64,000 nt of DNA, taken from the NCBI GenBank assembly GCA_964408025.1, contig CAYOXX010000001.1, positions 7,627 to 71,626 on the forward strand, written 5' to 3'. The notes under the pieces are model-generated. The model was not told the origin of the DNA. It worked only from the letters and a program-made list of their open reading frames with translations, and did not search any database. Below are positions 15,597 through 64,000 of this stretch, one piece after another (the first letter of the stretch is position 1; each line of letters starts with the position of its first letter). This DNA is from an uncultured Acidobacteriota bacterium (lineage in GTDB: Bacteria > Acidobacteriota > DATKUA01). The position numbers and the translations under genes are program-made.

Positions 15597-16745
15597 TCAG
15601 GTTGATTTCTTTTCGACATCGAGGCTTGAACGCTGACGAAAGCCGTCGATGAAGTCGTCGCGGAAGCGTGTGAACCTTCCCGCCGCGATCGCCTCGCGCG
15701 CGCGCGCCAATAGAGTAAGGAAGAAATGCAGGTTGTGATGTGTGTTGAGCATCGAGGCGAGGATCTCTCCGGAGACGAACAGGTGACGCAGGTAGGCGCG
15801 GCTGAATCGCGAGCAAACGGAGCAGCCGCACTCCGGGTCTATCGGCGAGGGATCGTTGCGGTAGTGTGCATGCTTGATCGACAGCCGGCCGCGCGAGGTG
15901 AACAGCGTCCCGGTGCGCGCGTTGCGGGTCGGCAACACGCAATCGAACAGGTCGTAGCCGAGGCCGATCATGGTGAGCAGGTCGTCCGGCGGCCCTACGC
16001 CCATCAGGTAGCGTGGCCTGTCATCCGGCAGCATCGGGGCACAGAGGGCGGCGGTCTCGAGCAGCAGCTCCTTCGGCTCGCCGACGCTGAGGCCGCCGAC
16101 AGCGTGGCCGGCGAAGTCGAGTTCGGCGAGGCGCTCGGCGCAGGCGCGGCGCTGCCGCGGGTCGAAACCTCCCTGCTGGATGCCGAACAGGGCGCCGCCA
16201 GCTGGGCCGGGCACCCGGCGGTACTCCGCGAGGCTACGAGCCGCCCAGCGACAGGTGAGCTCCGTCGCTTCCCGCACAACTGGCGTCGGGGCGGGATAGG
16301 GTAGACAGTGGTCGAGGACCATGATGATGTCGCTGCCGAAGGAGAGCTGATTCCGTACGCAGCTCTCCGGTGTCATGAGGTGCTCGCTACCGTCGAGGTG
16401 CGAGTTGAAGCGCACCCCCTCCTCAAGAACCCGGTGGCGACCCTGCATGCTGTAGATCTGGAAACCTCCGCTGTCGGTCAGTATCGCACGCTGCCAACCG
16501 ATGAAGCTGTGCAGCCCACCGAGGGACCGGATGAGCTCCGCGCCGGGGCGCAGGCTCAGGTGGTAGGTGTTTCCGAGGACGATATCCGCTCCCAGCTCTT
16601 CCAGGTCACGGGGGTGCATGGCCTTAACTGAACCCTGCGTTCCGACCGGCATGAAAGCGGGTGTGCGAACTGGCCCGTGCGGAGTCGAGAGCACGCCACA
16701 CCTGGCGGCGGAGGGCCCGTCTTTACAGGTGATCTCGAAAGCCAT
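15597..16745 (-). CDS. tgt: Queuine tRNA-ribosyltransferase
   Basis: It has PAFMPVGTQGSVK, the catalytic region, and the Zn site CGCSVCSRFSRAYLRHLF. The start was trimmed to MAFEITCKDG to match the Tgt N-terminus; the track ORF begins at 16874. Confidence 0.9.
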   Translation of the reverse strand: MAFEITCKDGPSAARCGVLSTPHGPVRTPAFMPVGTQGSVKAMHPRDLEELGADIVLGNTYHLSLRPGAELIRSLGGLHSFIGWQRAILTDSGGFQIYSMQGRHRVLEEGVRFNSHLDGSEHLMTPESCVRNQLSFGSDIIMVLDHCLPYPAPTPVVREATELTCRWAARSLAEYRRVPGPAGGALFGIQQGGFDPRQRRACAERLAELDFAGHAVGGLSVGEPKELLLETAALCAPMLPDDRPRYLMGVGPPDDLLTMIGLGYDLFDCVLPTRNARTGTLFTSRGRLSIKHAHYRNDPSPIDPECGCSVCSRFSRAYLRHLFVSGEILASMLNTHHNLHFFLTLLARAREAIAAGRFTRFRDDFIDGFRQRSSLDVEKKST

Positions 16746-17135
16746 AGCCGCGGAGTATAGCCGCAATCGAAAGCGGGTGCTAGTGAGTGGAAGACATAAA
16801 GTAAATTCTAGGTATTTTCGCGGCGAGAACTTACTGGCAGCCCGGGTAGTTAATAGATGGGAGAATAATTCCAAAAAATACTCAAGTATTTTCTACAAGA
16901 TCTTGTATGCTTAAAGCACTTTAGTGCAATATCGAGTAAGTGTAATGTTATCAACAATATGCGAGCGCGGATTGTTGACCTTTCAAGGCTTGAGTAGTAC
17001 ACTCTAGTATGATGTCTTCCATCCATGGGTATGGACATCGTGTGAGGAGTTAGCCCTCGGCTGAATGAGCATGGAAAGACTTATCCGGGCGGGGGCGAAA
17101 AAGGCAATGCGGGTTCTCCCGCGGGAGGGCGTAGA

Positions 17136-17336
17136 GTGACCTACACCACATCCCAAGTTGCAGAAAGAGTTGGAGTATCTAAGAAGACCCTCTACAGCTG
17201 GCTGAAGAAGAGGATCATCGAGGAGCCTGATCGCGACTACAAGGGCTACCGCATCTGGAGCGAAGAGGACATCAACAAGTGCCTGGAGTATAAGAACCGC
17301 CGCATCCCGGCGTCCCAGGTGAAGAGCAGAAAGTAG
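17136..17336 (+). CDS. Small HTH DNA-binding protein (MerR/excisionase-type HTH_17), possible pil-locus regulator
   Basis: 66 aa. TSQVAERVGVSKKTLYSWLKK is a helix-turn-helix. It has a GTG start with GGAGGG 6 nt upstream. It sits in an AT-rich divergent promoter region directly upstream of pilM. Confidence 0.5.
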   Translation: MTYTTSQVAERVGVSKKTLYSWLKKRIIEEPDRDYKGYRIWSEEDINKCLEYKNRRIPASQVKSRK

Positions 17337-17355
17337 AGTACCGTTCGGAGGAGGC

Positions 17356-18414
17356 ATGTTTGGGCGTCGCAAGCGTCTGCTTGGCGTCGATATTGGCTCA
17401 CACGCCATCAAGTCGGTGCTGCTCAAGCGCTCGAAGAAGGGCGGCATGCAGTACGAGCTGGAGAAGATCGCGCTGGAGCCGGTACCGCCGCAGGTGATTG
17501 TCGAGGGCGACATAATCGATTCGGTCACCGTCATAGACGTGTTCGACCGCCTGCTGCGCTCCATGCGTACGCGGGTCAACGACGTCGCCATCGCCATGGC
17601 CGGCAACTCGGTGATAATTAAGAAGATCGCCATGCCCGGCATGAGCGAGGAGGATCTCGAGGATTCGATTCAGTGGGAGGCGGAGCAGTACATCCCCTTC
17701 GAGATCGACGAAGTAATGGTTGACTACCATTTGATGTCCGAGTCGACGGAAGGCGGTTCAATGGACGTAGTGTTGGTGGCGGTCAAGAAGGACAAGATAC
17801 TCGACTACACCAGCATCGTCAGCCAAGCGGGCAAGTCGACGGCGGTTGTGGACGTCGACGTCTTTGCCATCCAGAACTGCTTCGACGTCAACTACCAGGA
17901 CGTCGGTGGCGCCAACATAGGCCTGGTGAACATCGGGGCAAGCGTCACCAGCATCAACATCCTGGAGGACGGCAGGACCTCGTTCTGGCGCGACATCATC
18001 GCCGGCGGCAACAAGCACACCGAGGCGCTACAGCGGGACCTGGGCCTGGGGATCGAGCAGGCGGAGGACGCCAAGCGTGGCTTTGAGGTCGAGGGGGCAC
18101 CACCCGACGCAGTGATTTCGGTGCTTGACAAGGCTTCGGAAGAGGTCGTCGACGTGATAGCCAAGACCTTCGATTTCTACCGGGGCAGCTCCGGCGGCGC
18201 GTCGCTGGAGAGGGTTTACGTCGGCGGCGGCGCGGCAGCGACCTCCGATTTCCTCGACATGCTCGGCGGCAGGATCGGCGTGCCGGTGGAGATGATGGAT
18301 CCGTTCCGCGCCATCTCGGTAAACCCGAAGAAGTTCGATGTCGATTACATCCGCGACCAGAGTACCAGCTTCGCGGTCGCAGTAGGCTTGGCGCTGCGGG
18401 AGGCTGACTACTGA
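17356..18414 (+). CDS. pilM: Type IV pilus assembly protein PilM (actin-like ATPase fold)
   Basis: 352 aa. LGVDIGSHAIKSVLLK... is the PilM/FtsA-like N-terminus. It heads a pilMNOPQ gene order. Confidence 0.85.
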   Translation: MFGRRKRLLGVDIGSHAIKSVLLKRSKKGGMQYELEKIALEPVPPQVIVEGDIIDSVTVIDVFDRLLRSMRTRVNDVAIAMAGNSVIIKKIAMPGMSEEDLEDSIQWEAEQYIPFEIDEVMVDYHLMSESTEGGSMDVVLVAVKKDKILDYTSIVSQAGKSTAVVDVDVFAIQNCFDVNYQDVGGANIGLVNIGASVTSINILEDGRTSFWRDIIAGGNKHTEALQRDLGLGIEQAEDAKRGFEVEGAPPDAVISVLDKASEEVVDVIAKTFDFYRGSSGGASLERVYVGGGAAATSDFLDMLGGRIGVPVEMMDPFRAISVNPKKFDVDYIRDQSTSFAVAVGLALREADY

Positions 18415-50356: not shown

Positions 50357-51922
50357 TCACTCCAGCAGCTTGATCACCACGGCCGTCATGTCGTCGAACT
50401 GCTCGGCGGAACCGATGTGGATTCTTACGTCGGCGATTAGTGTCTCGAGCAGCTCGCGCGGGCTGGCGAAGACGACGGAGGCGAGTATCTCTTCAAGCCT
50501 TTCGTAACCGAATACGGAGCCGCCCTCGTCGAGCGCCTCGACGATGCCGTCCGAATAGTAGACGAGGAAATCGCCGGGCCGCAGCTTTGCCTGCTTGGCG
50601 CTGAATTGCAGGCCGGTCTTGACGGCGAGCGGGTATGAGATCGACTCCAGCGGGATCAGGTCCGGCCGGTTGCCGCGCAGAAGATAGGTGAACGGGTGGC
50701 CGGCGTTGGAGTAGCGGATGGTCATCCTCTGCAGATCGATAACTGAGTAGAATAGAGTGACCATCGAGCGCGGCTCGCTGAGTTTGTAGAGAATGTCGTT
50801 CATCGAGGACATCGTGCGGTCGATATCTGCCTGGAAGGCGATCTGCGTGTGCAGGCAGCCCTTGGTGATCGCCATCAGCAGGCCGGCGCTCATACCGTGG
50901 CCGGAGACGTCGCCGATGACGACACCTAACCTGTCGTCGCCGAAGGTGAGGTAATCATAGAAGTCGCCTCCGACCTCTGTCGCCGGCTCGAAGTAGGTCT
51001 CGACCTCGAGGCGGGCGTGCTCGGGCATCCGACGCGGCAGCAGGTTGTGCTGGACCTCGCGGGCGATCTGGAACTCACGCTTGATCTTCTCCTTCTCGCG
51101 CAGACCTTCCGTCATGTAGTTGAAGGTGCTGGCCAGCGTTCCGATTTCGTCCCGGCCGGTTATCTCTATGCGCTGCTCGAGATCGCCAGCCGAGACGCGC
51201 TTCATCGCCTCCTCGAGCACCTTGATCGGCTTCGATATGGCGCCGCCCAGAAATACGGAGGCCAGGACGCCGATCACGATGTAGACGGCGAAGATGCCGA
51301 GGTTGATCGCGATCGCCTGGAAGATCTCCCCCCTCAAGCCGATGGTGCTGAAGCCGAGCACGATGGCATTGAGCTCCTCGCTGTCTTCGCCGACGAGGTT
51401 GGTGACGACGATCATCAGGTTGTTGCCGGCCTCGTGAATACGGCGTCGGAGCAGCTTGTCGATGAACTCTACCTCGTCCTCGGGAGTCTCGATCATGCGC
51501 GTCTCCTCGACCTCCCGACCACCCTCGGTTCTGACGACGGCGTACGAGCTGACGATGGTCCTGTTGACGGCGGCCGCGAGTATCTGGCCGCGCCGGTTGA
51601 GGAAGGAGACGAAGACGATATCCTGGGCCAGCTCTTCCTGACCCAGGAAGCGGCGCAGCAGCCGCTGGACTTCAGAGTAGTTGGTTCTCCGCTCGGCGAG
51701 GATGTTGAAGCTGAGAATAGTTTTGGCCACCGTCTCGGCCCTGCGGCCCATCTCCCTTTCACGCAGTCTGCGGTCGCGCTCGATCTGCAGGTAGCCGATA
51801 GACAGCAGGATGGCGACGAGCAGGAAGACCACGAGGACCGTGATCTTGGTCTTCAAGCTGAAGGCCTTGCGCCCGATGAAAAATAGTGGCCTTTTTTTCA
51901 CTCGCAAGTCGTTTGCCGCCAT
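50357..51922 (-). CDS. HAMP-domain PP2C-type serine phosphatase (SpoIIE/RsbU-like)
   Basis: It has an N-terminal TM and a HAMP domain (KVLEEAMKRVSAGDLEQRIEITGRDEIGTLASTFNYM). The PP2C motifs are GGDFYDY and DVSGHG, and C-terminal metal-binding Asp residues are present. Confidence 0.75.
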   Translation of the reverse strand: MAANDLRVKKRPLFFIGRKAFSLKTKITVLVVFLLVAILLSIGYLQIERDRRLREREMGRRAETVAKTILSFNILAERRTNYSEVQRLLRRFLGQEELAQDIVFVSFLNRRGQILAAAVNRTIVSSYAVVRTEGGREVEETRMIETPEDEVEFIDKLLRRRIHEAGNNLMIVVTNLVGEDSEELNAIVLGFSTIGLRGEIFQAIAINLGIFAVYIVIGVLASVFLGGAISKPIKVLEEAMKRVSAGDLEQRIEITGRDEIGTLASTFNYMTEGLREKEKIKREFQIAREVQHNLLPRRMPEHARLEVETYFEPATEVGGDFYDYLTFGDDRLGVVIGDVSGHGMSAGLLMAITKGCLHTQIAFQADIDRTMSSMNDILYKLSEPRSMVTLFYSVIDLQRMTIRYSNAGHPFTYLLRGNRPDLIPLESISYPLAVKTGLQFSAKQAKLRPGDFLVYYSDGIVEALDEGGSVFGYERLEEILASVVFASPRELLETLIADVRIHIGSAEQFDDMTAVVIKLLE

Positions 51923-54239: not shown

Positions 54240-54887
54240 TCAGCGGGGCGGCAGCGTCTTCAGCCTGTGCTTCAGGATGGCCAGGCCAAACGCCAGATTC
54301 TCGTTCTTGATAATCACGCTCTCGGGCACCTCCAGGTTGATGGGAGCGAAGTTCCAGATGGCTTTGATGCCACTCCTGACCATGACATCGGTAACTTCCT
54401 GGGCGCCGGGTGCCGGCAGGGTGAGTATCCCGACAGGGATGCTCTGTTCCTTGATGTACTGGCCGACGGTATTGACGTCCTGGATGACCCGCCCCTGGAT
54501 GTGGGTACCAATTTTGGCCGGGTCGGCGTCGAATACCGCCTTGATGCGAAGCCCGTAGTTGGCGAATCCGCCGTACTGTACAATCGCCGTCCCGAGGTGG
54601 CCGACACCTACCAGTACCGCGTCCTCGACACTGCGGAGGCCGAGGAAATCCTCGATCGTATCCATCAGCTGCGAGATCTCGTAACCGACCTTGGGCTTGC
54701 CGGTGTGGCCTATCGAAGTCAGGTCCTTGCGCACCTGTGTAGCTTCGACGTAAGTCTGCAACGAGAGCTTGAGCGAGGAGACGTGGCGGACGCCCTGCTT
54801 GCGCAGGTAGGATATATACTGGTAATAACGTGGAAGACGCTGGATAGTCTGGACCGAAACCTTCCTTTTTCCACCACCTCGCTTCAT
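54240..54887 (-). CDS. rex: Redox-sensing transcriptional repressor Rex
   Basis: The N-terminal winged helix reads RLPRYYQYISYL. The Rossmann NADH-binding motif reads GVGHLGTA. Confidence 0.85.
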   Translation of the reverse strand: MKRGGGKRKVSVQTIQRLPRYYQYISYLRKQGVRHVSSLKLSLQTYVEATQVRKDLTSIGHTGKPKVGYEISQLMDTIEDFLGLRSVEDAVLVGVGHLGTAIVQYGGFANYGLRIKAVFDADPAKIGTHIQGRVIQDVNTVGQYIKEQSIPVGILTLPAPGAQEVTDVMVRSGIKAIWNFAPINLEVPESVIIKNENLAFGLAILKHRLKTLPPR

Positions 54888-55103
54888 AAGGACCCCCTTG
54901 GCCGCCAAGCACTAGCCTAGCTTAAGGTGTTATATTCGCTACTGAAGTCGCAATTCAAGAGTATAAACGTTTATGAACGGATGTCAAGAAAGATTTTGCT
55001 GGCTATATTTCCGGCTGCAGGGAGCAGTCGGCGGGCTTGAGAATTGCTGTTCGGTAGTTCGCCATCCGAAGCTACGGATACATCTGCTCGCGCGTCGGCT
55101 GAT

Positions 55104-56336
55104 CTAGATGATGCCCAGTGCCTGCAACAGGTAGCGGCCGCTGAGGGCTACCACGACGAGCAGAACGGCCATCGCCACTACATTCATCGGCATAGAATTA
55201 GCCATGTTGCCGAGTCGCCTCCTGTTGTTCAGTGCGACGATGAGGAATACAGCCGCTACCGGGAGTATCACCGCGTTCAGAGCTTGGGCGGCGACTATCA
55301 GGAGTACGGGATTGGCACTTAGCAGGGCGAAGGCCATCCCTACCGCCATGACCGCGATCCAGGTCGTCCTGAAGCGCTTGCTGCGCGAATCCTGAGGCCA
55401 GCCGGCCGCTCCGGACACGGTGTAAGCTGCGGCCAGCGGCGCCGTAATGGACGAGGTCATCCCCGCTGCCCAGAGGCCGACTCCGAAAACCGCCGCGCCG
55501 GCGTCGCCCAGCATGATCCTCAGCGGTTCAGCCACCGAGTCGATCCCGCTGATCCCCTCTCCCTTCATCGCCCCGGCTGCCGTGATCATTATTCCCGCCG
55601 AGACGGCTATGCCGATGCCCACGGCGAACAGAACATCCAGCCGCGCAGTGCGCAGCGCCCCGCGTCCGGTGCCCCACTTTTCCCCCACTATCCTCGAGTG
55701 CAGAAAGAGGTTGTAGGGAACGACGGTCGTTCCGATCAGCGCCAGCACTGTCAGCAGCCCAGCCTCTGGAATGACGGGTGTGAGCAGCCCCGATGCCAGT
55801 TGCGGCACTCGCGGCGCGAAGACTACCGCGGTGACGACAAAGCACATGCTCATAACCGCCACCAGTGCGATCAGAACGCGCTCGATGGCCTTGTAGCGGC
55901 CGGTCCAGAGCAGCACCGCTCCTACGGCGCACTGCAGCAGCGCCCAAGCGCGCAGGTCGCCGCCCATGAGAGCCGAGAGGCCGGCGGCCCCTCCGACGAG
56001 GTTGCCGGCTTGGTAGGCGGCGCAGCCGATCAGTATCGCGCCCGCCACCAGGAAACCGGCTGCGGCACGCAGCCATCTGTTGCCCGAAGATTCACGCAGC
56101 ATCTGCGCTAGGTCCTTGCCGGTCGACAATCCGAGGCGCATCGACATCTCCTGCAGAACCAGCACCGTGATCCCGGCGAAAAGCAGCGTCCACAGCAGCG
56201 CCGGACCGAACGCCGCTCCGGCGGCCGTGCAGGTGATCACGGTGCCCGGTCCGATAAAGGCGGCGGTGATCACCAAGCCTGGACCGAAACGTCCGGCGCG
56301 GGAGCTGTCCTTACCAGCGGTTTCTTCGCTAGCCAT
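55104..56336 (-). CDS. NRAMP-family divalent metal (Mn2+/Fe2+) transporter
   Basis: 410 aa, ~11 TM. The conserved ...AAFIGPGTVITCTAAGA... corresponds to the Nramp DPGN region, and the later ...VVPYNLFLHS... is also conserved. Confidence 0.7.
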   Translation of the reverse strand: MASEETAGKDSSRAGRFGPGLVITAAFIGPGTVITCTAAGAAFGPALLWTLLFAGITVLVLQEMSMRLGLSTGKDLAQMLRESSGNRWLRAAAGFLVAGAILIGCAAYQAGNLVGGAAGLSALMGGDLRAWALLQCAVGAVLLWTGRYKAIERVLIALVAVMSMCFVVTAVVFAPRVPQLASGLLTPVIPEAGLLTVLALIGTTVVPYNLFLHSRIVGEKWGTGRGALRTARLDVLFAVGIGIAVSAGIMITAAGAMKGEGISGIDSVAEPLRIMLGDAGAAVFGVGLWAAGMTSSITAPLAAAYTVSGAAGWPQDSRSKRFRTTWIAVMAVGMAFALLSANPVLLIVAAQALNAVILPVAAVFLIVALNNRRRLGNMANSMPMNVVAMAVLLVVVALSGRYLLQALGII

Positions 56337-56484
56337 AGTAGCCGGCCTCGTTCATCCATCTTACCGACAGAAGCACACTACGTGCGGAGAATGCGGGCCC
56401 CGCTGCCTCAATATGAGTCGGACGCGTCTCTCGGCGAAACCCGATCACAGAGGATAGCCTCGATCCTCGCCCGGGGCAATCGGG

Positions 56485-56519
56485 GAAAAGAGAAAAGAGA
56501 AAAGAGAAAAGAGAAAAGA
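56485..56519. repeat. Heptanucleotide microsatellite (GAAAAGA)x5 within a ~44-nt pure polypurine tract
   Basis: The tract reads GGGGAAAAGAGAAAAGAGAAAAGAGAAAAGAGAAAAGAGAGGAAG. It is non-coding, ~150 nt upstream of the nramp start. It lies on the far side of the long hdr leader. Confidence 0.85.
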
Positions 56520-56668
56520 GAGGAAGCTCTTGTTCGCACCCCCAAGCGCTCGATAGAGCGCTGCTGCGTTGCCGAGGCGCCGTAGCAACGAGACCGGTAT
56601 TCATTTGAAGGTTGGTCGAGAATTTGTGCGAAAAGATGACATATCGGTCGCGTTCTGATATTTCAGGG

Positions 56669-56697
56669 TTGACATATCACGGGATCACGGTTTAAAT
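56669..56697 (+). promoter_or_regulatory. Candidate sigma70 promoter far upstream of hdrCBA
   Basis: A perfect TTGACA, a 17-nt spacer containing a direct repeat of ATCACGG, then TTAAAT. It is ~390 nt upstream of the hdrC GTG, which implies a long 5' leader. Confidence 0.3.
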
Positions 56698-57090
56698 AAG
56701 CAGTGCAGTGGCAATATTGGATGCTGGTGCATAAGGGACTCTAGGCATCACGAAAAGGGATGAAGAGATGGCGCTTCTATCGCGGTTCGATAATCCAGGT
56801 GGATTTGTGATCTCGAGAGAGCGCGTTTAACCTGGTTCTCAGACCACGCGAGCGGCGTTTTAGTTGGCAATAATAGGAAATTCGAGCGCAGCCACATCAG
56901 CGGTGTCGCAGTTGGACGCTTGGGCATATTCCGCTTCGGCTTGCCTAATTAAGGTCAGTGCTTTGTGGGAGCAGCGGTCGAGGAGTTCAATCGTTACTCC
57001 CAAGCTTAACAAGTCGAGCAGCGAAGCTTGCTGCACTGAAGAGAATTCGAGGTTCATTCGCTGATAATCATTAATTGAGAGGAGGCTCGA

Positions 57091-57681
57091 GTGGCTACCG
57101 TCAGGGGAATAAAACTCGAACAGTCGATGAAACTCGACTTCATGGATGAAGTTTACGCCTTGCCGGGCGGTGACAAGGTGAAGGACTGCATCCAGTGCGG
57201 GACATGCAGCGGTAGCTGCCCCGTCGCCGACAGGATGGAGCACTCCCCGCGGCAGATCTTCGCGATGATCCGCGCCGGGATGCGGGAGGAGGTCCTGAGC
57301 AGCAATACCGTTTGGATTTGCGCTTCGTGCTACACCTGCCCGGTGCGCTGCCCCAAGGAGATCAAGATCGCCGACCTCTTCTACTCGATCAAGAGGATCG
57401 CCATTCGCGAGGGCAAGGCTGGCAAGAACAAGGCGGCAGCTCTTAGCTCCAGCTTCGCCAGGCAGGTGAACAAGTACGGCCGCAACAACGAGATCCGCTT
57501 ATTGATCGATTACTTCCTGCGCGCTGACTTCTGGGGCTGGATCAAGCAGCTGCCGATAGGATGGAAGCTGCTGAGCAAGGGCCGCCTGCCGCTGCTGGCC
57601 AAGAAGATCAAGGGTATGCGCCAGGTCAGGACGATAATCAAAAAGGTGCACGCCATGCAGAACAACGGAGGTCCGAGATGA
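57091..57681 (+). CDS. hdrC: Heterodisulfide reductase subunit C (2x[4Fe-4S] ferredoxin-like)
   Basis: It has two Cys motifs, CIQCGTCSGSCP and CASCYTCPVRCP. It has a GTG start with GAGAGGAGG upstream. hdrB overlaps it by 4 nt. Confidence 0.8.
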   Translation: MATVRGIKLEQSMKLDFMDEVYALPGGDKVKDCIQCGTCSGSCPVADRMEHSPRQIFAMIRAGMREEVLSSNTVWICASCYTCPVRCPKEIKIADLFYSIKRIAIREGKAGKNKAAALSSSFARQVNKYGRNNEIRLLIDYFLRADFWGWIKQLPIGWKLLSKGRLPLLAKKIKGMRQVRTIIKKVHAMQNNGGPR

Positions 57682-58547
57682 AGTACACCTACTACCCCGG
57701 TTGCAGCTGCGAGCATTCCGCGAGGATGTACGACGTCTCCACCCGCGCCGTTTTCGAGCACCTGGGGGCGGAGCTGATCGAGCTCGATGACTGGAATTGC
57801 TGCGGCGCCACCGCTTACATGAGCGTCGAGGAGCTGATGAGCTTCTGTATCAGCGCCCGCAACCTGGCGATGGCCGAGGGGCTCGAGCGCGACATGGTGA
57901 CCCCGTGTAGCGGCTGCTACGTCACCCTCAACAAGACCCACAGCTACTACAACGAATACCCCGAGCTGCGCGAGAAGGTAGACGAGACTCTCGATGCCGT
58001 CGGCCTGAAGTACAACGGCACGCAGAGTGTCCGCCACGCTCTCGACCCGCTGGTCAACGACATCGGGCTGGAGGCGATCGCCGAGAAGGTTACCAGGCCT
58101 CTGAAGGGCCTGAAGGTGGCGCCGTATTACGGCTGCCAGATCGTACGCCCCTTCACCGATCTGGACGACCCAGACTATCCGATGATGATGGATCGGTTGC
58201 TTGAGACCTTGGGGGCGACTGTTGTGGCCTTCGAGTACAAGACAAAATGCTGCGGCGGCGCCCAGATGGGCACGAATCAGGATCTGGCATTACGGCTGGT
58301 AAGGAACATCCTGCTATGCGCCCAGAGAGCGGGCGCCGACCTCATCTGTACCACTTGCCCTCTGTGCCAGATGAATCTCGAGGCCTATCAGGGCACCGTC
58401 AACAGGCGCTTCAAGCTCGATTTCAACATTCCGGTTGTCTACTTCACCCAGCTCACCGCCGTCGCCATGGGCCTGCCGGAAAAGGTAGTAATGCCCGAGA
58501 AGCATATCGTGCCTTTCAAGGACAAGCTGGCCGCGGTCGCGGGTTAA
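57678..58547 (+). CDS. hdrB: Heterodisulfide reductase subunit B (two CCG domains)
   Basis: It starts MKYTYYPGCS. The CCG domain motifs are WNCCGATAY, CSGC, YYGCQ, KCCGG and TCPLCQ. Confidence 0.85.
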   Translation: MKYTYYPGCSCEHSARMYDVSTRAVFEHLGAELIELDDWNCCGATAYMSVEELMSFCISARNLAMAEGLERDMVTPCSGCYVTLNKTHSYYNEYPELREKVDETLDAVGLKYNGTQSVRHALDPLVNDIGLEAIAEKVTRPLKGLKVAPYYGCQIVRPFTDLDDPDYPMMMDRLLETLGATVVAFEYKTKCCGGAQMGTNQDLALRLVRNILLCAQRAGADLICTTCPLCQMNLEAYQGTVNRRFKLDFNIPVVYFTQLTAVAMGLPEKVVMPEKHIVPFKDKLAAVAG

Positions 58548-58557
58548 GGAGGATAGC

Positions 58558-59418
58558 ATGGCCGAGGAAACCAAGGACGTGAGCACGCCCCGCATCGGGG
58601 TATACATCTGCCACTGCGGCTCGAACATCGCCAAGCAGGTCGACGTCTTCGGCGTCGCCGACTACGCGTCGACTCTCCCCAACGTCGACATCGCCCGCGA
58701 GTACAAGTTCATGTGCTCCGAACCGGGTCAGGATCTGATCAAGAACGACATCAAGGAGCGCGGCCTGACGCGCGTGGTCGTGGCTGCCTGCAGTCCGCTG
58801 ATGCACGAGCTGACCTTCCGCAAGGCTGCCGAGACCGCCGGCCTCAACCAGTACCTGGTTCAGATCGCCAACATCCGCGAGCAGTGCGCCTGGGTTACAG
58901 TCGACAAGAGCGATGCGACGGTCAAGGCCAAGGCGCTGGTGCACGGCGCCGTCAACAAGGCCACATATCTCGAGCCGCTGCAGACCCGGAAGGTAAAGAT
59001 AAACCCGGCAACGCTTGTGGTCGGCGGCGGCATAGCCGGTATCCAGGCCTCGCTGGACCTGGCCGAGGCCGGCTTCCAGGTCTACCTGGTGGAAAGGGAC
59101 ACGACAATCGGCGGCCAGATGGCCCGCTTCGACAAAACCTTCCCCACACTCGACTGCGCCGCCTGCATCCTGACGCCGAAGATGGTTAGCGTTGCGCATC
59201 GAGAGAAAATCAAGATTTTGGACAGCTCTGAAGTCGAGGACGTGTCAGGCTACATCGGCAACTTCGAGGTCAAGGTGCGTAAGCACCCCCGCTACGTCGA
59301 CGTGGACAAGTGCACGGCCTGCACGGCCTGCTGGACCGCCTGCCCGGCGGTGCGGACGCCGACAAACCGTGAGATCAGGAGGGGAGAGTTCCTCGTCAAG
59401 CAGAAAGTCACGGCCTGA
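58558..59418 (+). CDS. HdrA-like protein, N-terminal 286 aa only (truncated hdrA / possible gene remnant)
   Basis: It has the HdrA-type N-terminal Fe-S domain (IGVYICHCGSNIA), the FAD-binding motif (LVVGGGIAGIQASLDLAEAG...ERDTTIGG) and the first Cys cluster of the inserted ferredoxin domain (CTACTACWTACP). A stop follows. The next gene starts 32 nt later, and there is no continuation in any frame. Confidence 0.55.
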   Translation: MAEETKDVSTPRIGVYICHCGSNIAKQVDVFGVADYASTLPNVDIAREYKFMCSEPGQDLIKNDIKERGLTRVVVAACSPLMHELTFRKAAETAGLNQYLVQIANIREQCAWVTVDKSDATVKAKALVHGAVNKATYLEPLQTRKVKINPATLVVGGGIAGIQASLDLAEAGFQVYLVERDTTIGGQMARFDKTFPTLDCAACILTPKMVSVAHREKIKILDSSEVEDVSGYIGNFEVKVRKHPRYVDVDKCTACTACWTACPAVRTPTNREIRRGEFLVKQKVTA

Positions 59419-59450
59419 GGCTCGGGCGGAGCGTCTTCGGGGAGATTGCC

Positions 59451-59798
59451 ATGAGCCTACGGCTCGAGGAGGTTAAAGAGATTCTGGAGTGCGAGGTGGT
59501 CGTCGGCGAGGACCAGCTGGATCTCAGCGTCGATCTGGGCTGCGCCGCGGACCTCATGAGCGACGTGCTGGCCTTCAGCCAATCAGGGTCGCTGTTGCTT
59601 ACCGGCCTGGCGAACGAGCAGGCGGTGCGGACAGCCGACATCGCGGAGGTCAAGGCGATAGTGTTCGTACGCGGCAAGAAACCGAACTCGGAAGCCATCA
59701 AGCTGGCCGAGCGCCGGAGGATACCCCTGCTGTGCACGAAGTTCTACATGTACGAGGCCGCGGGGCGCTTATACGCAAGCAATCTCAAAAGTCGGTAG
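59451..59798 (+). CDS. DRTGG-domain small protein (paralog 1) of the sensory-hydrogenase module
   Basis: 115 aa. ...DLMSDVLAFSQSGSLLLTGLANEQAVRTADIAEVKAIVFVRGKKP...IPLL.T resembles the DRTGG domain found N-terminal in Pta and CBS-DRTGG proteins. Confidence 0.45.
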   Translation: MSLRLEEVKEILECEVVVGEDQLDLSVDLGCAADLMSDVLAFSQSGSLLLTGLANEQAVRTADIAEVKAIVFVRGKKPNSEAIKLAERRRIPLLCTKFYMYEAAGRLYASNLKSR

Positions 59799-59808
59799 GT
59801 AGTAAGGC

Positions 59809-60261
59809 ATGGGTAGCGAGGCCCAGCTAACGCAGGAATTTGAGATAGAAGGAGGCAACCTTTCAAGGGCCGGCGATGTTTCGATGCATATCAAGTCGAC
59901 ACTCAGGGCCATCGGCGTGCCGTCGGATTCGATCCGCCGGGCGTCGATCGCCTGCTACGAAGCGGAGATGAACGTGGTGATGTACGCCAGGCGTGGCACG
60001 TTGTGCTTCTCCATCTCGCCGCAACGCATCAGCGTCGAGGTGGCCGACGAAGGTGAAGGCATCCCCGACATCGAGCTGGCCATGCAGGAAGGATACTCGA
60101 CAGCCTCTGAAGAAATACGTGAGTTGGGCTTCGGCGCCGGCATGGGGCTGCCCAACATCAAGAAGAACACCGACGAGATGGAGCTCTCATCCGTTGTCGA
60201 CCAGGGAACCGTGCTGAAGTTCAATATCAACCTTAACAAGGCGGGTGCCTCAGGTGGGTGA
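59809..60261 (+). CDS. GHKL-type ATPase, anti-sigma regulatory factor (RsbW/SpoIIAB-like Ser/Thr kinase) family
   Basis: 150 aa. The N box reads EAEMNVVMYA. The G1 and G2 boxes read ADEGEGIPD and GFGAGMGL. Its size and motifs match partner-switching kinases. Confidence 0.6.
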   Translation: MGSEAQLTQEFEIEGGNLSRAGDVSMHIKSTLRAIGVPSDSIRRASIACYEAEMNVVMYARRGTLCFSISPQRISVEVADEGEGIPDIELAMQEGYSTASEEIRELGFGAGMGLPNIKKNTDEMELSSVVDQGTVLKFNINLNKAGASGG

Positions 60262-61579
60262 TTTTATCCACTCGATCCGTTTCGACAGCCAGCGCTGCAA
60301 GGGCAGAATGGCGTGCATGCGCGTCTGCCCCACCGAGGCGATCCGGGTGCGCAACGGCCACGCCTCCATGCTGGAAGACCGCTGCATCGACTGCGGCGAG
60401 TGCCTGACGATCTGCCCGTCCGGCGCCGTGGTGCCGCTGACGAACTCCTTCGTTGATTTCTCCCGCTTCCGCCACACGATCGTAATCCCGACGCCGTCGT
60501 TTTACGTCCAGTTCGGCCTCAACGTGGCACCTGAGACGCTCGTCCGGGGCTTGCTGGAGATAGGCTTCGACAGCTTCTACGACGTATCGCTAGTCTGCGA
60601 AGCAACCGGGATGGCGATAAGCGAATTTCTCGATCGTTACGACGGTCCCCTACCCCTCATCACGCCGTTCTGCCCAACCGTGGTGCGGCTCATGCAGTTG
60701 AAATTCCCGGACATCTCCGGATTGCTTATGCCTATCGAGTCGCCGATGGAAACGGCCGCCCTTGAGGCGAAAGAGAAAGTTGCCGCGCAGACCGGATTGC
60801 CCCTGGAGGACATCGGTACTATCTACCTGACGCCCTGTCCGGTGAAGATGATCGCCATCCAGCACCATCCGCGCAAGGCCTATTCCTACATTGACGGCGC
60901 AATCGCAATTTCCGATATATATCAGCCGCTGCTTGCGGCACTGCAAAAGCTCCCCCATAACGATGAAGAGAAACGGGAAAAGGTAGAGCTTTCGGCAGCC
61001 GGCCTGGGCTGGGGAAGACCGAATGGTCTGACGCGCAGCCTTGGCAGCGAGGATATACTCTTCGTGTCGGGACTGAACAACGTAATCAGCATCTTCGAAG
61101 AGATCGAGAGGGGGCACCTCAAGGACATCAAGATGGTGGAGTGCCATACATGCTGGGGTGGCTGTATCGGTGGCAGCCTTCTGATTGAGAACTCTTACGT
61201 GTCGCGCCACCGGATGCAGGCTATGCAGGCAAGGCTCGGGTGGGAACCGAAGGTAGATCGCGAGGACGTATCCAAGCGCTTCAAAGAAGGCTACTACACG
61301 GTAGACCAGGCACTACCCACCAGCCCTTTCAAGCCCCTTGACAAAGACTTTGCCAAGGCGATCGAGAAGATGAAGCAGATAGAGGAGCTTCATCAGATTC
61401 TCCCGGGCATCGATTGCGGCGTGTGCGGGGCCCCGACCTGCCAGGCTTTCGCGGAGGACGTGGTGCTGGGGCGCGCAGAGGTAAGCGACTGCGTTTTCGA
61501 GCAGCGCAAGCAGATCGAGGGCTTGCTGCGGCAGTCGCTCGACTGCCTGGCGGGGCAGCTCGATTCAAAGGAAGGCTGA
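60245..61579 (+). CDS. Sensory-type [FeFe]-hydrogenase homolog (HydS-like): N-terminal 2x[4Fe-4S] ferredoxin + H-cluster domain with non-canonical motifs + C-terminal Cys-rich tail
   Basis: The ferredoxin domain has CKGRMACMRVCP and CIDCGECLTICP. The H-domain motifs are TPFCP (canonical L1 is TSCCP), TPCPVK (canonical L2 is MPCxxK) and ECHTCWGGCIGG (canonical L3 is ExMACxxGCxxGGGQP). The C-terminus has CGVCGAPTC...SDC. It overlaps the upstream GHKL gene by ~17 nt. Confidence 0.75.
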   Translation: MPQVGDFIHSIRFDSQRCKGRMACMRVCPTEAIRVRNGHASMLEDRCIDCGECLTICPSGAVVPLTNSFVDFSRFRHTIVIPTPSFYVQFGLNVAPETLVRGLLEIGFDSFYDVSLVCEATGMAISEFLDRYDGPLPLITPFCPTVVRLMQLKFPDISGLLMPIESPMETAALEAKEKVAAQTGLPLEDIGTIYLTPCPVKMIAIQHHPRKAYSYIDGAIAISDIYQPLLAALQKLPHNDEEKREKVELSAAGLGWGRPNGLTRSLGSEDILFVSGLNNVISIFEEIERGHLKDIKMVECHTCWGGCIGGSLLIENSYVSRHRMQAMQARLGWEPKVDREDVSKRFKEGYYTVDQALPTSPFKPLDKDFAKAIEKMKQIEELHQILPGIDCGVCGAPTCQAFAEDVVLGRAEVSDCVFEQRKQIEGLLRQSLDCLAGQLDSKEG

Positions 61580-61581
61580 CG

Positions 61582-61923
61582 ATGCTATTGCGACAGCTAG
61601 TCGAGGCGCTGGAGCTGGAGGTCCTGACCTGCCGGCAGAAGCTGGAACGGGAGGTGACCGCCGGCTACGCAAGCGACATGCTCAGCTTCGTGATGGCCAA
61701 CGCCACGGAGGGCTCGGTATGGGTTACGGTGCAGGTGCACGAGAACATCGTGGCCGTGGCGATGCTGAGAAGCCTGGCGGCAATCCTCCTGGTGGGCGAT
61801 CGCAGCCCGGAGCAGTCGACCTTGGATAAAGCCGAACAGGAGGAAGTCTGCGTGCTCCGCAGCCGCCTGTCGGCATTCGAGGTCGTGGGCAGAATGTACG
61901 AGGCTGGAATCCGGGGAGGCTGA
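61582..61923 (+). CDS. DRTGG-like small protein (paralog 2)
   Basis: 113 aa. ...DMLSFVMANATEGSVWVTVQVHENIVAVAMLRSLAAILLVGDRSP... is similar in pattern to the protein at 59451. It starts 3 nt after the HydS-like stop. Confidence 0.4.
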   Translation: MLLRQLVEALELEVLTCRQKLEREVTAGYASDMLSFVMANATEGSVWVTVQVHENIVAVAMLRSLAAILLVGDRSPEQSTLDKAEQEEVCVLRSRLSAFEVVGRMYEAGIRGG

Positions 61924-62660
61924 TGCTGAGTGCCTACAGCGCCGACCTGCACATCCACACCTGCCTCTCGCCGTGCGGGGAGCTGGAGATGAGCCCGCTA
62001 AGTGTAGCCGAGCGGGCGGCCAGCGTCGGCCTGGACATGATCGCCATCTGCGACCACAACAGCGCGGAGAACGCGGGAGCAGTGATGAAGGCGGCCGGCC
62101 AGGGCAAGGTAACCGTCATCGCCGGCATGGAAATAACCACCAGCGAGGAGGTCCACGTCCTCGGTCTCTTCCCCACCCTGCGCAGCGCTCTGGCCGCGCA
62201 GGAGGTGGTGTTCGAGCACCTCGAGGGGGAGAACGACGAGGAGGCTTTCGGAATGCAGGTGATCGCCGACGAGCGGGACGAAGTAGTCGGCTTCAATACG
62301 AGGCTGTTGATCGGCGCCACCGACCTGGATTACAGCAAGGTGGTGGCCCTGATCCGCAAGCACGGCGGGCTGGCGATCGCTTCGCACGTCGACCGCGACG
62401 GCTTCGGGCTCATCGGTCGCCTCGGCTTCATTCCGGAAGAGCCGCCGCTGGACGCCGCTGAGCTGTCGTGCGACGGGTCGGCGGACCAGGTAACGGAGTC
62501 GTGCCTCGGATCGAAGCCGCCTATGCTCATTCGCAGCTCGGACGCCCACCGGCTCGACGAGATAGGAGAGGGACGTTGCCTGTTGCTGGCTGCGGAGGCT
62601 TCGTTCGACGAGCTGCGCTCGGCCCTGCACGGCGAGGGCGGCCGCCGAGTGGACATATGA
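61923..62660 (+). CDS. PHP-domain phosphoesterase
   Basis: ADLHIHTCLSPCG...MIAICDHNS...ASHVDRD is the PHP His/Asp metal-binding pattern. Its ATG overlaps the upstream stop (TGATG). Confidence 0.65.
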   Translation: MLSAYSADLHIHTCLSPCGELEMSPLSVAERAASVGLDMIAICDHNSAENAGAVMKAAGQGKVTVIAGMEITTSEEVHVLGLFPTLRSALAAQEVVFEHLEGENDEEAFGMQVIADERDEVVGFNTRLLIGATDLDYSKVVALIRKHGGLAIASHVDRDGFGLIGRLGFIPEEPPLDAAELSCDGSADQVTESCLGSKPPMLIRSSDAHRLDEIGEGRCLLLAAEASFDELRSALHGEGGRRVDI

Positions 62661-62668
62661 GGTGAAGC

Positions 62669-63253
62669 GTGGAAGACCTGTCTCTGCACATCCTCGACGT
62701 AGCCGAGAACGGCATCGCAGCCGACGCCGATTTTGTGCGCATATCGCTGGACGAAGACAGCAGGGACGACAGACTTACTCTCGAGATCGCCGACAACGGC
62801 TCTGGCATGGACCCGGAGCTGCTGCGCTCGGTTACCTCGCCGTTCACGACGACCAGGACCTCGCGCAACGTAGGTATGGGCCTGCCGATGCTGGCCATGT
62901 CCGCGGAGAGCGCGGACGGGGGGCTGAGCATCGATTCCGTCCCCGGCGAGGGGACAACAGTGCGAGCGACGTTCCGGCTCGGACACATCGACCGCATTCC
63001 GATTGGCGATCTGAGTCAGACCGTCAGGACGTTGATCGTCGGGAACGAAGACGTGGACTTCGTGTTCGAGTACCGCAAGAACGGCAGGGAGTTCTCGCTG
63101 GACACCCGCGAACTCCGGAGGGCCTCCGGCGGCAAGCCGTTCTGGAAGCCCGAGGTAATGAGGACCCTGCGTGAGCTTATCGACGAGGGCATGCGCGAAC
63201 TCGACGGCATGGCCGCGAAGGTTGCCTCGGGGAAGGACGTTGAGGATAGGTAG
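62669..63253 (+). CDS. GHKL/HATPase_c-domain ATP-binding protein (second kinase-like ATPase)
   Basis: 194 aa. The G1, G2 and G3 boxes read IADNGSGMD, GMGLPM and GEGTTV. It has a GTG start with a GAGGTGAAG RBS. Confidence 0.6.
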   Translation: MEDLSLHILDVAENGIAADADFVRISLDEDSRDDRLTLEIADNGSGMDPELLRSVTSPFTTTRTSRNVGMGLPMLAMSAESADGGLSIDSVPGEGTTVRATFRLGHIDRIPIGDLSQTVRTLIVGNEDVDFVFEYRKNGREFSLDTRELRRASGGKPFWKPEVMRTLRELIDEGMRELDGMAAKVASGKDVEDR

Positions 63254-63335
63254 TAGGCAAAGAAGCGGCATCCGCCCACGCGACGCAACGAGGGATGGAC
63301 GCCGCATGAGAATGCCGAATCAGTTACGGGGGTAA

Positions 63336-63794
63336 ATGGTTATGGCGACCAGCAAAGTAGAGGAGATCATCTCCAAATACTCAGGAGGAGAACAGGATAT
63401 CATCGCGATCCTCCAGGATGTACAGGATGAGTACAACTACATCCCCAAGGACGTCCTGGCCGAAATAACGGGTGCACTCCAGATTCCCATGAGCCGGGCA
63501 TATTCCCTGGCGACCTTCTTCAGTGCTTTCAGTCTCGAGCCGAAGGGTAAGTATCCGATCAACGTCTGCATGGGAACAGCCTGCCACGTTCAGGGTGCCC
63601 CCAGGATTCTCGATAAGCTCGAGCGCGATCTGAGTATCAAGAAGGGGCAGACAACATCCGACGGGCTTTTCAGCCTCGACGAGGTTCACTGCCTTGGCTG
63701 CTGCGGTCTGGCGCCGGTTATCACAGTTGGCGAGGACCTCTATGGCAAGGTGAAGCACGGGCAACTGAAGAAGATTCTGAAGAAGTACCAGTAG
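63336..63794 (+). CDS. hydC: NuoE-like [2Fe-2S] thioredoxin-fold subunit of a NADH-dependent/bifurcating [FeFe]-hydrogenase (HydC/HndA type)
   Basis: 152 aa. The Cys motif reads CMGTACHV...CLGCCGLAP. ILQDVQDEYNYIPKDVL matches the 24-kDa NuoE family. Confidence 0.8.
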   Translation: MVMATSKVEEIISKYSGGEQDIIAILQDVQDEYNYIPKDVLAEITGALQIPMSRAYSLATFFSAFSLEPKGKYPINVCMGTACHVQGAPRILDKLERDLSIKKGQTTSDGLFSLDEVHCLGCCGLAPVITVGEDLYGKVKHGQLKKILKKYQ

Positions 63795-63850
63795 CATTCT
63801 GAAGCTATTTCCGGTGGTGAGTACCCCGGAACGCGAAAGGAGAGGAGATC

Positions 63851-64000
63851 GTGGGAAAGCTAAAAGTATCCGATCTCGAAAAGATCAAAGATAAAATAAA
63901 GCGTGCTACGAAGCTGCGGGAAGGCAAGGGCAGTGCACGCGTTACGGTGCACATGGGCACCTGCGGCATCGCAGCGGGGTCGCGAAACATCATGAGTGCG
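63851..64000 (+). CDS. hydB: NuoF-like hydrogenase beta subunit (HydB/HndC type), N-terminal fragment; continues past window end
   Basis: GTG start with an AAAGGAGAGGAG RBS. The N-terminal 2Fe-2S thioredoxin-like domain motif reads ARVTVHMGTCGIAAGSR. Confidence 0.65.
   Translation, partial: MGKLKVSDLEKIKDKIKRATKLREGKGSARVTVHMGTCGIAAGSRNIMSA

Follow-up and report, generated by a model that had tools for sequence, protein, structure and literature searches.

Members of class M2e (group D) of the [FeFe] hydrogenase homologues are defined by the absence of the relay residue Cys299 (CpI numbering), two N-terminal ferredoxin motifs and a C-terminal Cx2Cx4Cx16C motif without a PAS domain, and they are referred to as 'putative sensory' (PMC8163306). 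The class most likely corresponds to the HydDB 'group C1, histidine kinase-linked (putative)' (PMC5037454, PMC8542988). TamHydS of Thermoanaerobacter mathranii carries an H-cluster and three accessory [4Fe-4S] clusters, displays very low activity and shifts of its secondary structure under H2, and is a proposed H2 sensor (PMC8163306, PMC13104023), with an H2 turnover about a thousand-fold slower than that of group A (PMC11803613). Here we describe an M2e homologue encoded in a 64 kb stretch of DNA from an uncultured Acidobacteriota bacterium (contig CAYOXX010000001.1). The whole stretch is called the window below, and its features lie on the forward (+) strand unless marked (-). The gene, at 60245-61579, encodes a divergent member of the class, and with a probability of roughly 0.6 we take its product to act as the H2 sensor of an operon switch.

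The open reading frame (ORF) begins with GTG and specifies 444 amino acids (aa). A second in-frame GTG at 60254 yields a 441-aa form, which is the called start in an identical protein from a JGI metagenome (P0001, locus L081) and fits the family N-terminus better. Pfam divides the protein into a Fer4 dicluster (aa 11-62, E=1e-8), a Fe_hyd_lg_C domain (aa 77-310, E=2e-25) and a PF04060 'putative Fe-S cluster' domain (aa 386-418, E=6e-14). The N-terminal ferredoxin-like domain (60296-60418) contains seven cysteines, in CKGRMACMRVCP, where Arg21 takes the place of the second Cys, and in CIDCGECLTICP. The structural model (AlphaFold2; predicted local distance difference test 94.2, predicted template modelling score 0.89), built from an alignment of 120 homologues that excluded TamHydS, has as its best Foldseek matches in the PDB exclusively [FeFe] hydrogenases (DdH, CbA5H, CpI and the HydA of HydABC; template modelling scores 0.58-0.68).

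The three H-cluster motifs had been read by eye in a first-pass annotation of the window: L1 as TPFCP, with the relay Cys exchanged for Phe and the ligand Cys kept, L2 as TPCPVK with Cys and Lys retained, and L3 with an intact Cys pattern. Both phmmer against PDB hydrogenases, which pairs TPFCP with TSCCP, TPC..K with MPC..K and TCWGGCIGG with ACVGGCIGG, and an alignment anchored on CpI residues 226-574, a sequence verified against the PDB and used to transfer CpI numbering, agree with this reading. In L1 (aa 140-144, 60662-60676) Phe142 occupies the position of Cys299, so that the canonical catalytic cysteine is absent, and Cys143, the [4Fe-4S]H ligand, that of Cys300. L2 (aa 196-201, 60830-60847) places Thr196 at Met353, Cys198 at Cys355 and Lys201 at Lys358. 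L3, ECHTCWGGCIGG (aa 299-310, 61139-61174), comprises Glu299 (equivalent to Glu289 of TamHydS), an extra Cys300, His301 at Met497, Cys303 at Cys499 and Cys307 at Cys503; Trp256 corresponds to Phe417.

The C-terminal motif (61415-61492; Cys391, Cys394, Cys399 and Cys416, within the PF04060 domain) reads CGVCGAPTCQAFAEDVVLGRAEVSDC over aa 391-416, that is CGVCGAPTCQAF...SDC, an exact Cx2Cx4Cx16C, and is followed by a terminal helix. By phmmer this domain aligns with the N-termini of RnfB and of the corrinoid Fe-S protein (CoFeSP). Pfam detects no PAS domain in the ORF, in which 28 residues remain after the last Cys, and the earlier description of a HydS-like protein with a Cx2Cx4C...C motif in place of PAS therefore holds. 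TmHydS of Thermotoga maritima (M2f, group C) resembles the window protein in its missing Cys299, two N-terminal clusters, C-terminal four-Cys cluster and location near bifurcating hydrogenase genes (PMC8163306), but, compared by description only, differs in the PAS domain that follows its C-terminal cluster.

Because this combination of motifs equals the published M2e/group D definition, the protein belongs to an already described class and is not a new HydS variant. It has the three-part architecture and length of TamHydS, and like TamHydS combines the lack of Cys299 with a hydroxyl residue (Ser or Thr; here Thr196) at the Met353 position, as expected of group D, and with the C-terminal Cx2Cx4Cx16C. 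BLASTP aligns residues 7-439 with residues 3-426 of TamHydS at 36% identity (E=4e-106), the TamHydS protein having been reconstructed from codon-optimised DNA in a supplement (a machine-read, frameshifted listing) and its numbering checked on ten published residue numbers. The interdomain and cluster-adjacent charges R30, R32, E392, D393, D378 and D403, conserved in group D (PMC13104023), are kept as R34, R36, E404, D405, D390 and D415, the acidic residues forming the Asp-Cys, Glu-Asp and Asp-Cys features shared with TamHydS.

A word-indexed search returned more than 3,600 homologous proteins at E≤1e-5, with the common architecture in all 120 listed from it, and an exhaustive search returned 349 clusters (50% identity) at E≤1e-30. 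Compared below are the window protein itself, the 119 homologues nearest to it and, from many phyla, 80 genomic relatives. Throughout the 120 sequences the H-cluster cysteines (C143, C198, C303, C307) and K201 (Lys358) are invariant, as are the four C-terminal cysteines together with E404 and D405. Neither the window protein nor any of these 119 homologues varies at Trp256, at least 90% of them retain Pro84 (Pro231), and within TPCPVK the C and K are invariant and the T is found in 117 of the 119.

The NCBIfam models for groups A and B give the ORF scores of 89 and 99, against cut-offs of 406 and 450. The group A proton path Cys299-Glu279-Ser319-Glu282-Arg286 is represented by F142, A124, M162, a retained E127 and a gap at Arg286, and the methionines 353 and 497 that flank the [2Fe] site in group A are replaced by T196 and H301. 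A neighbour-joining (not maximum-likelihood) tree from Kimura-corrected distances over 231 H-domain columns, rooted on CpI and 12 group A3 HydA from the same loci, with group C (TmHydS) not included, places the protein on the M2e side of the split from group A in 200 of 200 bootstraps. Nar1 and NARFL, which serve Fe-S assembly in the eukaryotic cytosol, have an H-domain-like fold that lacks the [2Fe] subsite. A Nar1-like, non-hydrogenase identity, raised as an alternative in the first-pass annotation, is set aside on homology, with no Nar1 sequence in the comparison, as the nearest relatives are all bacterial M2e proteins.

Residue tables divide the M2e homologues into two types. In the Tam-type, mostly Firmicutes, the first ferredoxin motif is complete (CxxCxxCxxxC), Lys58, Glu252 and Asp265 are present, and the Cys299 position is taken by Ala or Ser; the 70 published group D sequences are also mostly from Firmicutes, with some Bacteroidetes and one Synergistetes member. 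Window-type proteins occur in Acidobacteriota, Ignavibacteriota, Aminicenantes, Zixibacteria, Calditrichota and Planctomycetota, in deltaproteobacterial metagenome-assembled genomes (MAGs) and in a few Clostridia-labelled MAGs. In the tree described above they form a sister subclade, recovered in 154 of 200 bootstraps.

The Glu252-Glu289-Ser249-Asp265 'alternative proton-transfer pathway' of TamHydS is reported to be highly conserved in and exclusive to group D (PMC10407848). In the window protein only Glu299, the counterpart of Glu289, is kept. Glu252 (Val423 in CpI) is replaced by Leu262 (Q in 73, I in 23, L in 11 and E in 1 of the 119 homologues), Ser249 by Pro259 (mostly L or V) and Asp265 by Ser275 (mostly G, S or A). 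At position 299, mostly Ala in group D according to the literature and Ala137 in TamHydS, the window protein has Phe142, shared by 88 of the 119. His301 stands for Leu291 of TamHydS (CpI Met497; H in 66, Y in 28), and the extra Cys300 for Gly290 (CpI Val496; C in 87). The second Cys of the first ferredoxin motif, Cys17 in TamHydS, is Arg21 here (R in 98, K in 8, H in 3, C in 5), a residue aligned by phmmer to a Cys of PDB 9rkm. The group D trait of eight N-terminal cysteines, for two [4Fe-4S] clusters, with conserved K35 and K58 close to these clusters is altered to seven cysteines with His39 and Val62.

Positions 299, 496, 497 and 252, which the CpI mapping and the cited papers identify as second-sphere residues round the [2Fe] site, covary in two sets, F/C/H-or-Q/Q-or-L and V-or-A/A/Y/I-or-M. 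This covariation argues for selection on the pocket rather than decay. Three traits of the subclade were found without description in the literature searched: the Phe/His pocket lacking the group D path, the 3-Cys distal cluster, and the association with [NiFe] hydrogenase or formate dehydrogenase genes. The same holds for the recurring module of DRTGG, ATPase and PHP genes around HydS described below, with its fusions. The motifs and the HydS-like call of the first-pass annotation stand, while the lost ferredoxin cysteine, the missing group D proton path and the gene context had been overlooked in it.

From the conserved ligands we infer that the protein most likely carries four clusters: the H-cluster, a proximal [4Fe-4S] cluster, a distal cluster with three Cys ligands and a C-terminal [4Fe-4S] cluster. 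The H-cluster would most likely be held by Cys143, Cys198, Cys303 and Cys307 together with Lys201, and its [2Fe] subsite is predicted from the conservation of these ligands. In the CpI-type assignment, the cluster more remote from the H-cluster has as its ligands the first three cysteines of motif 1 and the last of motif 2. The term 'distal' follows the ligands of FS4B in CpI, which we take to be C147, C150, C153 and C200. The corresponding residues here are Cys18, Cys24 and Cys57, and Arg21 stands where the fourth ligand would be. This cluster is probably [3Fe-4S], since a ferredoxin motif without its second Cys is the classical [3Fe-4S] signature, or else has a non-Cys ligand. The change is expected to matter, because in TamHydS the exchange C20A in the same (distal) cluster wholly blocks maturation, and a [3Fe-4S] cluster engineered at the C-terminal site is readily reduced by H2. 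A native distal cluster of higher potential would provide an easy electron sink at low H2.

An extra Fe-S cluster at the C-terminal motif, suggested in the first-pass annotation, gains support from the homologue, in which C379A converts the C-terminal [4Fe-4S] cluster of TamHydS to [3Fe-4S] (PMC13104023). The same work speaks against the accompanying idea of this cluster as the signal-output element, given that the C-terminal cluster of TamHydS shows no redox-state response to H2 (PMC13104023). With regard to protons, neither the group A relay (Cys299, here Phe142) nor the group D relay (Glu252 of TamHydS, here Leu262) is present. His301 beside Glu299 forms the only obvious protonatable pair, and hence a candidate relay, near the amine bridgehead; in the other covarying set Tyr stands at the His301 position. 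If protons are exchanged slowly, a reduced state of long lifetime would be favoured, as has been argued likewise for TamHydS and TmHydS.

The gene environment points to a signalling role. The HydS-like gene is the third in a tightly packed, partly overlapping run (59451-63794), whose members we counted over 80 loci from many phyla, covering both HydS types. The run opens with a DRTGG-domain protein (115 aa, 59451-59798; Pfam PF07085), found upstream of HydS in 76 of the 80 loci. Next comes a SpoIIAB/RsbW-like GHKL ATPase (HATPase_c_2 in Pfam, 150 aa, 59809-60261), which lies directly upstream in all 80. Its stop overlaps the HydS start, its N-box, G1 and G2 motifs are conserved, and it matches anti-sigma F factor weakly in both the PDB and NCBIfam. 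Downstream of HydS lie a second DRTGG-domain protein (113 aa, 61582-61923; Pfam; 74/80), a PHP-domain metal-dependent phosphoesterase (245 aa, 61923-62660; Pfam PHP and PHP_C; 62/80) and a second GHKL ATPase (194 aa, 62669-63253; HATPase_c, E=1e-15; 57/80). The latter resembles the catalytic domain of histidine kinases, to which its PDB matches belong, lacks DHp/HisKA, and is the counterpart of 'hisK' in the NiFe-HydABCSL operon of Acetomicrobium mobile (PMC9304861, PMC8880783). A NuoE/HoxE-like [2Fe-2S] subunit (BfuC/HydC, 63336-63794; 2Fe-2S_thioredx, E=9e-50; NCBIfam NuoE/HoxE), present in 56 of the 80 loci, ends the run. The ATP-binding motifs of both ATPases and the metal-ligand His, Asp and Glu of the PHP protein are at least 90% conserved. 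The same flanking genes, DRTGG, HATPase, DRTGG and PHP, accompany Tam-type HydS, including in a Tepidanaerobacter species, a genus of the published group D set.

Among the cluster representatives, HydS is fused to these neighbours in several ways: DRTGG::HydS in P0130 and P0198, HATPase::HydS in P0150, and HydS::DRTGG in P0134, P0162, P0196 and P0263. Conserved adjacency and fusion together suggest the DRTGG proteins and the SpoIIAB-like ATPase as the best candidates for the signal output of group D sensors, which group C holds as a fused PAS domain. A literature search for DRTGG together with hydrogenase returned nothing relevant. A functional parallel is offered by the regulatory [NiFe] hydrogenases (HoxBC/HupUV with the HoxJ kinase; HydDB 2b), in which a hydrogenase-derived H2 sensor and a kinase control another hydrogenase. 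The likeness is one of function only, as family and metal site are unrelated and HoxBC/HupUV signal through a response regulator and a histidine kinase that contains PAS; the window module has no HisKA, PAS or receiver domain.

The position of the gene might instead be read as that of a genuine low-rate catalytic subunit, docked on the BfuBC (NuoEF) core as an extra or alternative H2 module. TamHydS does catalyse both H2 evolution and oxidation, a metabolic role was raised in a metagenomic study in view of a gene lying among bifurcation subunits (PMC8542988), and the HydS-like gene sits with tight spacing within a structural operon. We nevertheless regard this as quite improbable. The thousand-fold deficit of TamHydS relative to group A (PMC11803613) is found in a protein that still has the relay Glu252, which the window protein lacks. 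The purified NiFe-HydABCSL of A. mobile and the [FeFe] HydABC holoenzymes contain no such subunit, and the constant company of ATPase, DRTGG and PHP proteins is typical of signalling and not of electron transfer.

The partner enzyme is only partly covered by the window. After the NuoE-like gene the window breaks off in the start of a gene for a small, 127-aa HydD-like [2Fe-2S] protein (63851-64000), which is complete in L081 (7359-7742); this locus is the same DNA as the window and runs on through the HydD-like gene into a partial NuoF. A metagenome scan for DNA beyond the window end returned only a 2.5 kb contig. At its head the operon carries HdrC-like (57091-57681) and HdrB-like (57678-58547) genes (Pfam Fer4_8/Fer4_17 and CCG), followed by the N-terminal half of a split HdrA (286 aa, 58558-59418), which matches residues 1-266 of a methanogen HdrA (8rvu_a, E=5e-97). 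An upstream HdrC occurs in 14 and an HdrB in 12 of the 80 loci, all of them in the window-type subclade. A reading of the short HdrA as a pseudogene or a product of selenocysteine read-through was rejected: an ORF of 280-287 aa is kept in four loci, the next gene lies in another frame and the missing half is found fused to BfuA.

This fusion is seen in L083, a locus with a HydS about 62% identical to that of the window and colinear with it over 13 genes (53-83% aa identity), among them, upstream, SpoIIE-HAMP, Rex and Nramp genes and then HdrC, HdrB and the short HdrA. Further downstream, L083 continues with NuoF, a 587-aa protein, MvhD (FlpD), the [NiFe] small and large subunits and a HycI protease. 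The 587-aa BfuA/HydA-like protein (15896-17659) consists of a NuoG-type part (aa 1-195) fused to HdrA residues ~250-653 (E=4e-106), so that about 7 kb, containing the sensor module and NuoE, HydD and NuoF, separate the two HdrA halves. The split HdrA implies a Mvh/Hdr/NuoEF hybrid complex. The [NiFe] large subunit of L083 matches MvhA best (5odc_F, 1.6e-118), followed by that of A. mobile NiFe-HydABCSL (7t2r_D, 5.6e-107). By synteny, the partner in the window organism is thus predicted to be an Mvh-type [NiFe] hydrogenase with HdrCB, split HdrA and MvhD. The ATPase neighbour, by comparison, is present in the window itself.

NiFe-HydABCSL (NiFe-Bfu) of A. mobile is similarly built from NuoE-like and NuoF-like subunits, a HydA without H-cluster and [NiFe] small and large subunits. 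The hisK-like ATPase and HydD encoded in its operon are not part of the purified complex and were assumed to serve maturation or regulation (PMC9304861, PMC8880783); the A. mobile literature searched makes no mention of an [FeFe]-like sensor in this operon. The L083 system differs in the fusion of its BfuA-like protein to the C-terminal half of HdrA, in the presence of HdrC, HdrB, the N-terminal half of HdrA and MvhD, and in a large subunit slightly closer to MvhA.

Over the 80 loci the partners are partitioned by HydS type. The 52 Tam-type loci contain an [FeFe] HydA in 28 cases, a [NiFe] hydrogenase in none, a formate dehydrogenase-type BfuA in 1 and NuoEF only in 7; in the other 16 none was seen within the stretch covered, which was in some cases short or ended by a contig end. 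For the 28 window-type loci the respective numbers are 0, 13, 7 and 5, with 3 in which, under the same limits, none was seen. By this partition, it is the NuoEF (Bfu) core that the module accompanies, whichever the catalytic partner. It could also be expected if the whole module served to assemble or mature Bfu-type complexes, its HydS-like member being an Fe-S scaffold or checkpoint; chaperones do occur in the GHKL family, and 'maturation and/or regulation' is the role given to hisK and hydD in the NiFe-HydABCSL work. We consider such a role of the module very improbable, given that the upstream ATPase is closest to SpoIIAB/RsbW serine kinases, that a scaffold has no need of the full H-cluster ligand set, and that in 16 loci of the Tam-type and 3 of the window-type no NuoEF genes were seen within the stretches covered, some of which are short or end with the contig.

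A sub-branch of the window-type (L018, 12629-15145; L021, L024, L034, L042, L057 and L059) carries, after the HydS-like gene, NuoE, NuoF and a BfuA of the molybdopterin (formate dehydrogenase) type. These loci are without a hydrogenase, and NfnAB-like genes are found in L018.

Two of these relatives, L042 and L057, have lost an H-cluster ligand through exchange of Cys499 for His, and in L057 the Trp at the Phe417 position is lost as well; in another homologue, L022, Glu occupies the Lys358 position. Since ligands have been lost in the formate dehydrogenase-linked relatives, the scaffold can outlive its cofactor. The window protein might by analogy be an Fe-S redox sensor or electron-transfer subunit on a hydrogenase scaffold without [2Fe] subsite (cf. 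Nar1 and apo-HydA), reporting the ferredoxin/NAD(H) state to the Bfu complex. Such a protein would fit with the absence of [FeFe] HydA from all 28 window-type loci in favor of [NiFe] or formate dehydrogenase Bfu complexes, with the lack of both known proton relays and of hydE, hydF and hydG among the window ORFs scanned (64 kb), and with the report of Hydrogenedentota C1-type proteins in which H-cluster motifs are hardly findable (PMC11406978). On the other hand, the invariance of the H-cluster cysteines, Lys201 and Trp256 and the near invariance of Pro84 noted above contrast with the decay in the formate dehydrogenase-linked proteins, and the covarying second-sphere positions imply selection on the pocket. 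On balance, we judge a protein devoid of the [2Fe] subsite to be unlikely.

Several of the same observations weigh against an H2 sensor. Even for TamHydS, 'sensing rather than catalytic' has the status of a hypothesis, and the window-type subclade is without any characterised member. Apart from the hydEFG genes not being seen among the window ORFs scanned, organisms in which the only linked hydrogenase is [NiFe] would need three maturases for a single protein. [quoted passage not shown] The [NiFe] genes are not seen in the window itself and are predicted from synteny. Finally, no DNA-binding or classical phosphoacceptor domain (HisKA, STAS, receiver) was found in the module.

Considering both sides, we favour the H2 sensor. 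H2 would be bound and slowly split at the relay-less H-cluster, giving rise to a long-lived reduced state that is suited to report H2 rather than to turn it over. The two DRTGG proteins and the co-translated SpoIIAB-like ATPase would then probably receive the signal by protein contact instead of through a fused PAS domain. The PHP phosphoesterase and the second GHKL ATPase would complete a kinase/phosphatase-like switch, which may control the NuoEF-type (Bfu) redox complex of the same operon. A wider proposition is that an [FeFe]-type H2 sensor governs a [NiFe] hydrogenase, the M2e subclade of several phyla (Acidobacteriota, Ignavibacteriota, Aminicenantes and others), with its Phe299, no Glu252, His or Tyr at 497 and 3-Cys cluster, providing the input of a post-translational DRTGG/GHKL-ATPase/PHP switch over Bfu complexes with any catalytic module. 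This we put forward tentatively, as it is rather more doubtful than probable.

If the sensor function is correct, the group D proton path proposed from TamHydS as exclusive and conserved holds only for the Firmicutes-dominated branch sampled so far, and the Phe299/His497 and Ala299/Tyr497 proteins offer a natural variant set for studying the tuning of H-cluster reactivity by the second sphere. For the output domain that group D sensors lack, candidates would be at hand in the neighbouring SpoIIAB-like ATPase and DRTGG proteins, to which HydS is fused in some lineages, and the signalling route would become testable. A sensor derived from one hydrogenase class would furthermore be tied, via the shared NuoEF (Bfu) core, to a catalytic enzyme of another class and to formate dehydrogenases; this bears on hydrogenase gene counts from metagenomes, in which HydS genes of this kind may be scored as H2-producing [FeFe] hydrogenases. 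If instead the protein has no [2Fe] subsite, the subclade would represent a bacterial case of a hydrogenase scaffold reused as redox sensor.

The DNA upstream of the operon encodes further potential regulators. A gene for a Rex redox-sensing repressor (54240-54908 (-); NCBIfam, E=2e-75) lies just upstream, separated from the operon by an Nramp gene, and its synteny is kept in L082 and L083. No Rex operator (TTGTGAA-N4-TTCACAA or its N6 variant, up to 3 mismatches) was found in the 56337-57090 intergenic region, and across the window the matches were not above those in shuffles; the same applies to a scan of 56300-64000 for promoters and terminators. A gene for a HAMP and SpoIIE (PP2C) phosphatase (50357-51922 (-)) also retains its synteny with the operon in L082 and L083. 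As PP2C phosphatases are the usual partners of SpoIIAB/RsbW-type kinases, it could be part of the same signalling circuit. The intergenic DNA that separates the Nramp gene from hdrC holds a short tandem repeat of about five GAGAAAA units at ~56484-56523 and, within 56640-56700, two copies of TGACATATC about 40 bp apart; this duplicated element may be an operator or a promoter element.

A separate observation concerns the group A3 HydA proteins of the Tam-type loci. In all 12 of those included in the tree, L1 aligns as TSCSP and not TSCCP, placing Ser at the position of the cluster ligand Cys300. Their genes are located about 6.5 kb downstream of HydS, for instance in loci L019, L025, L028, L032, L033 and L038.

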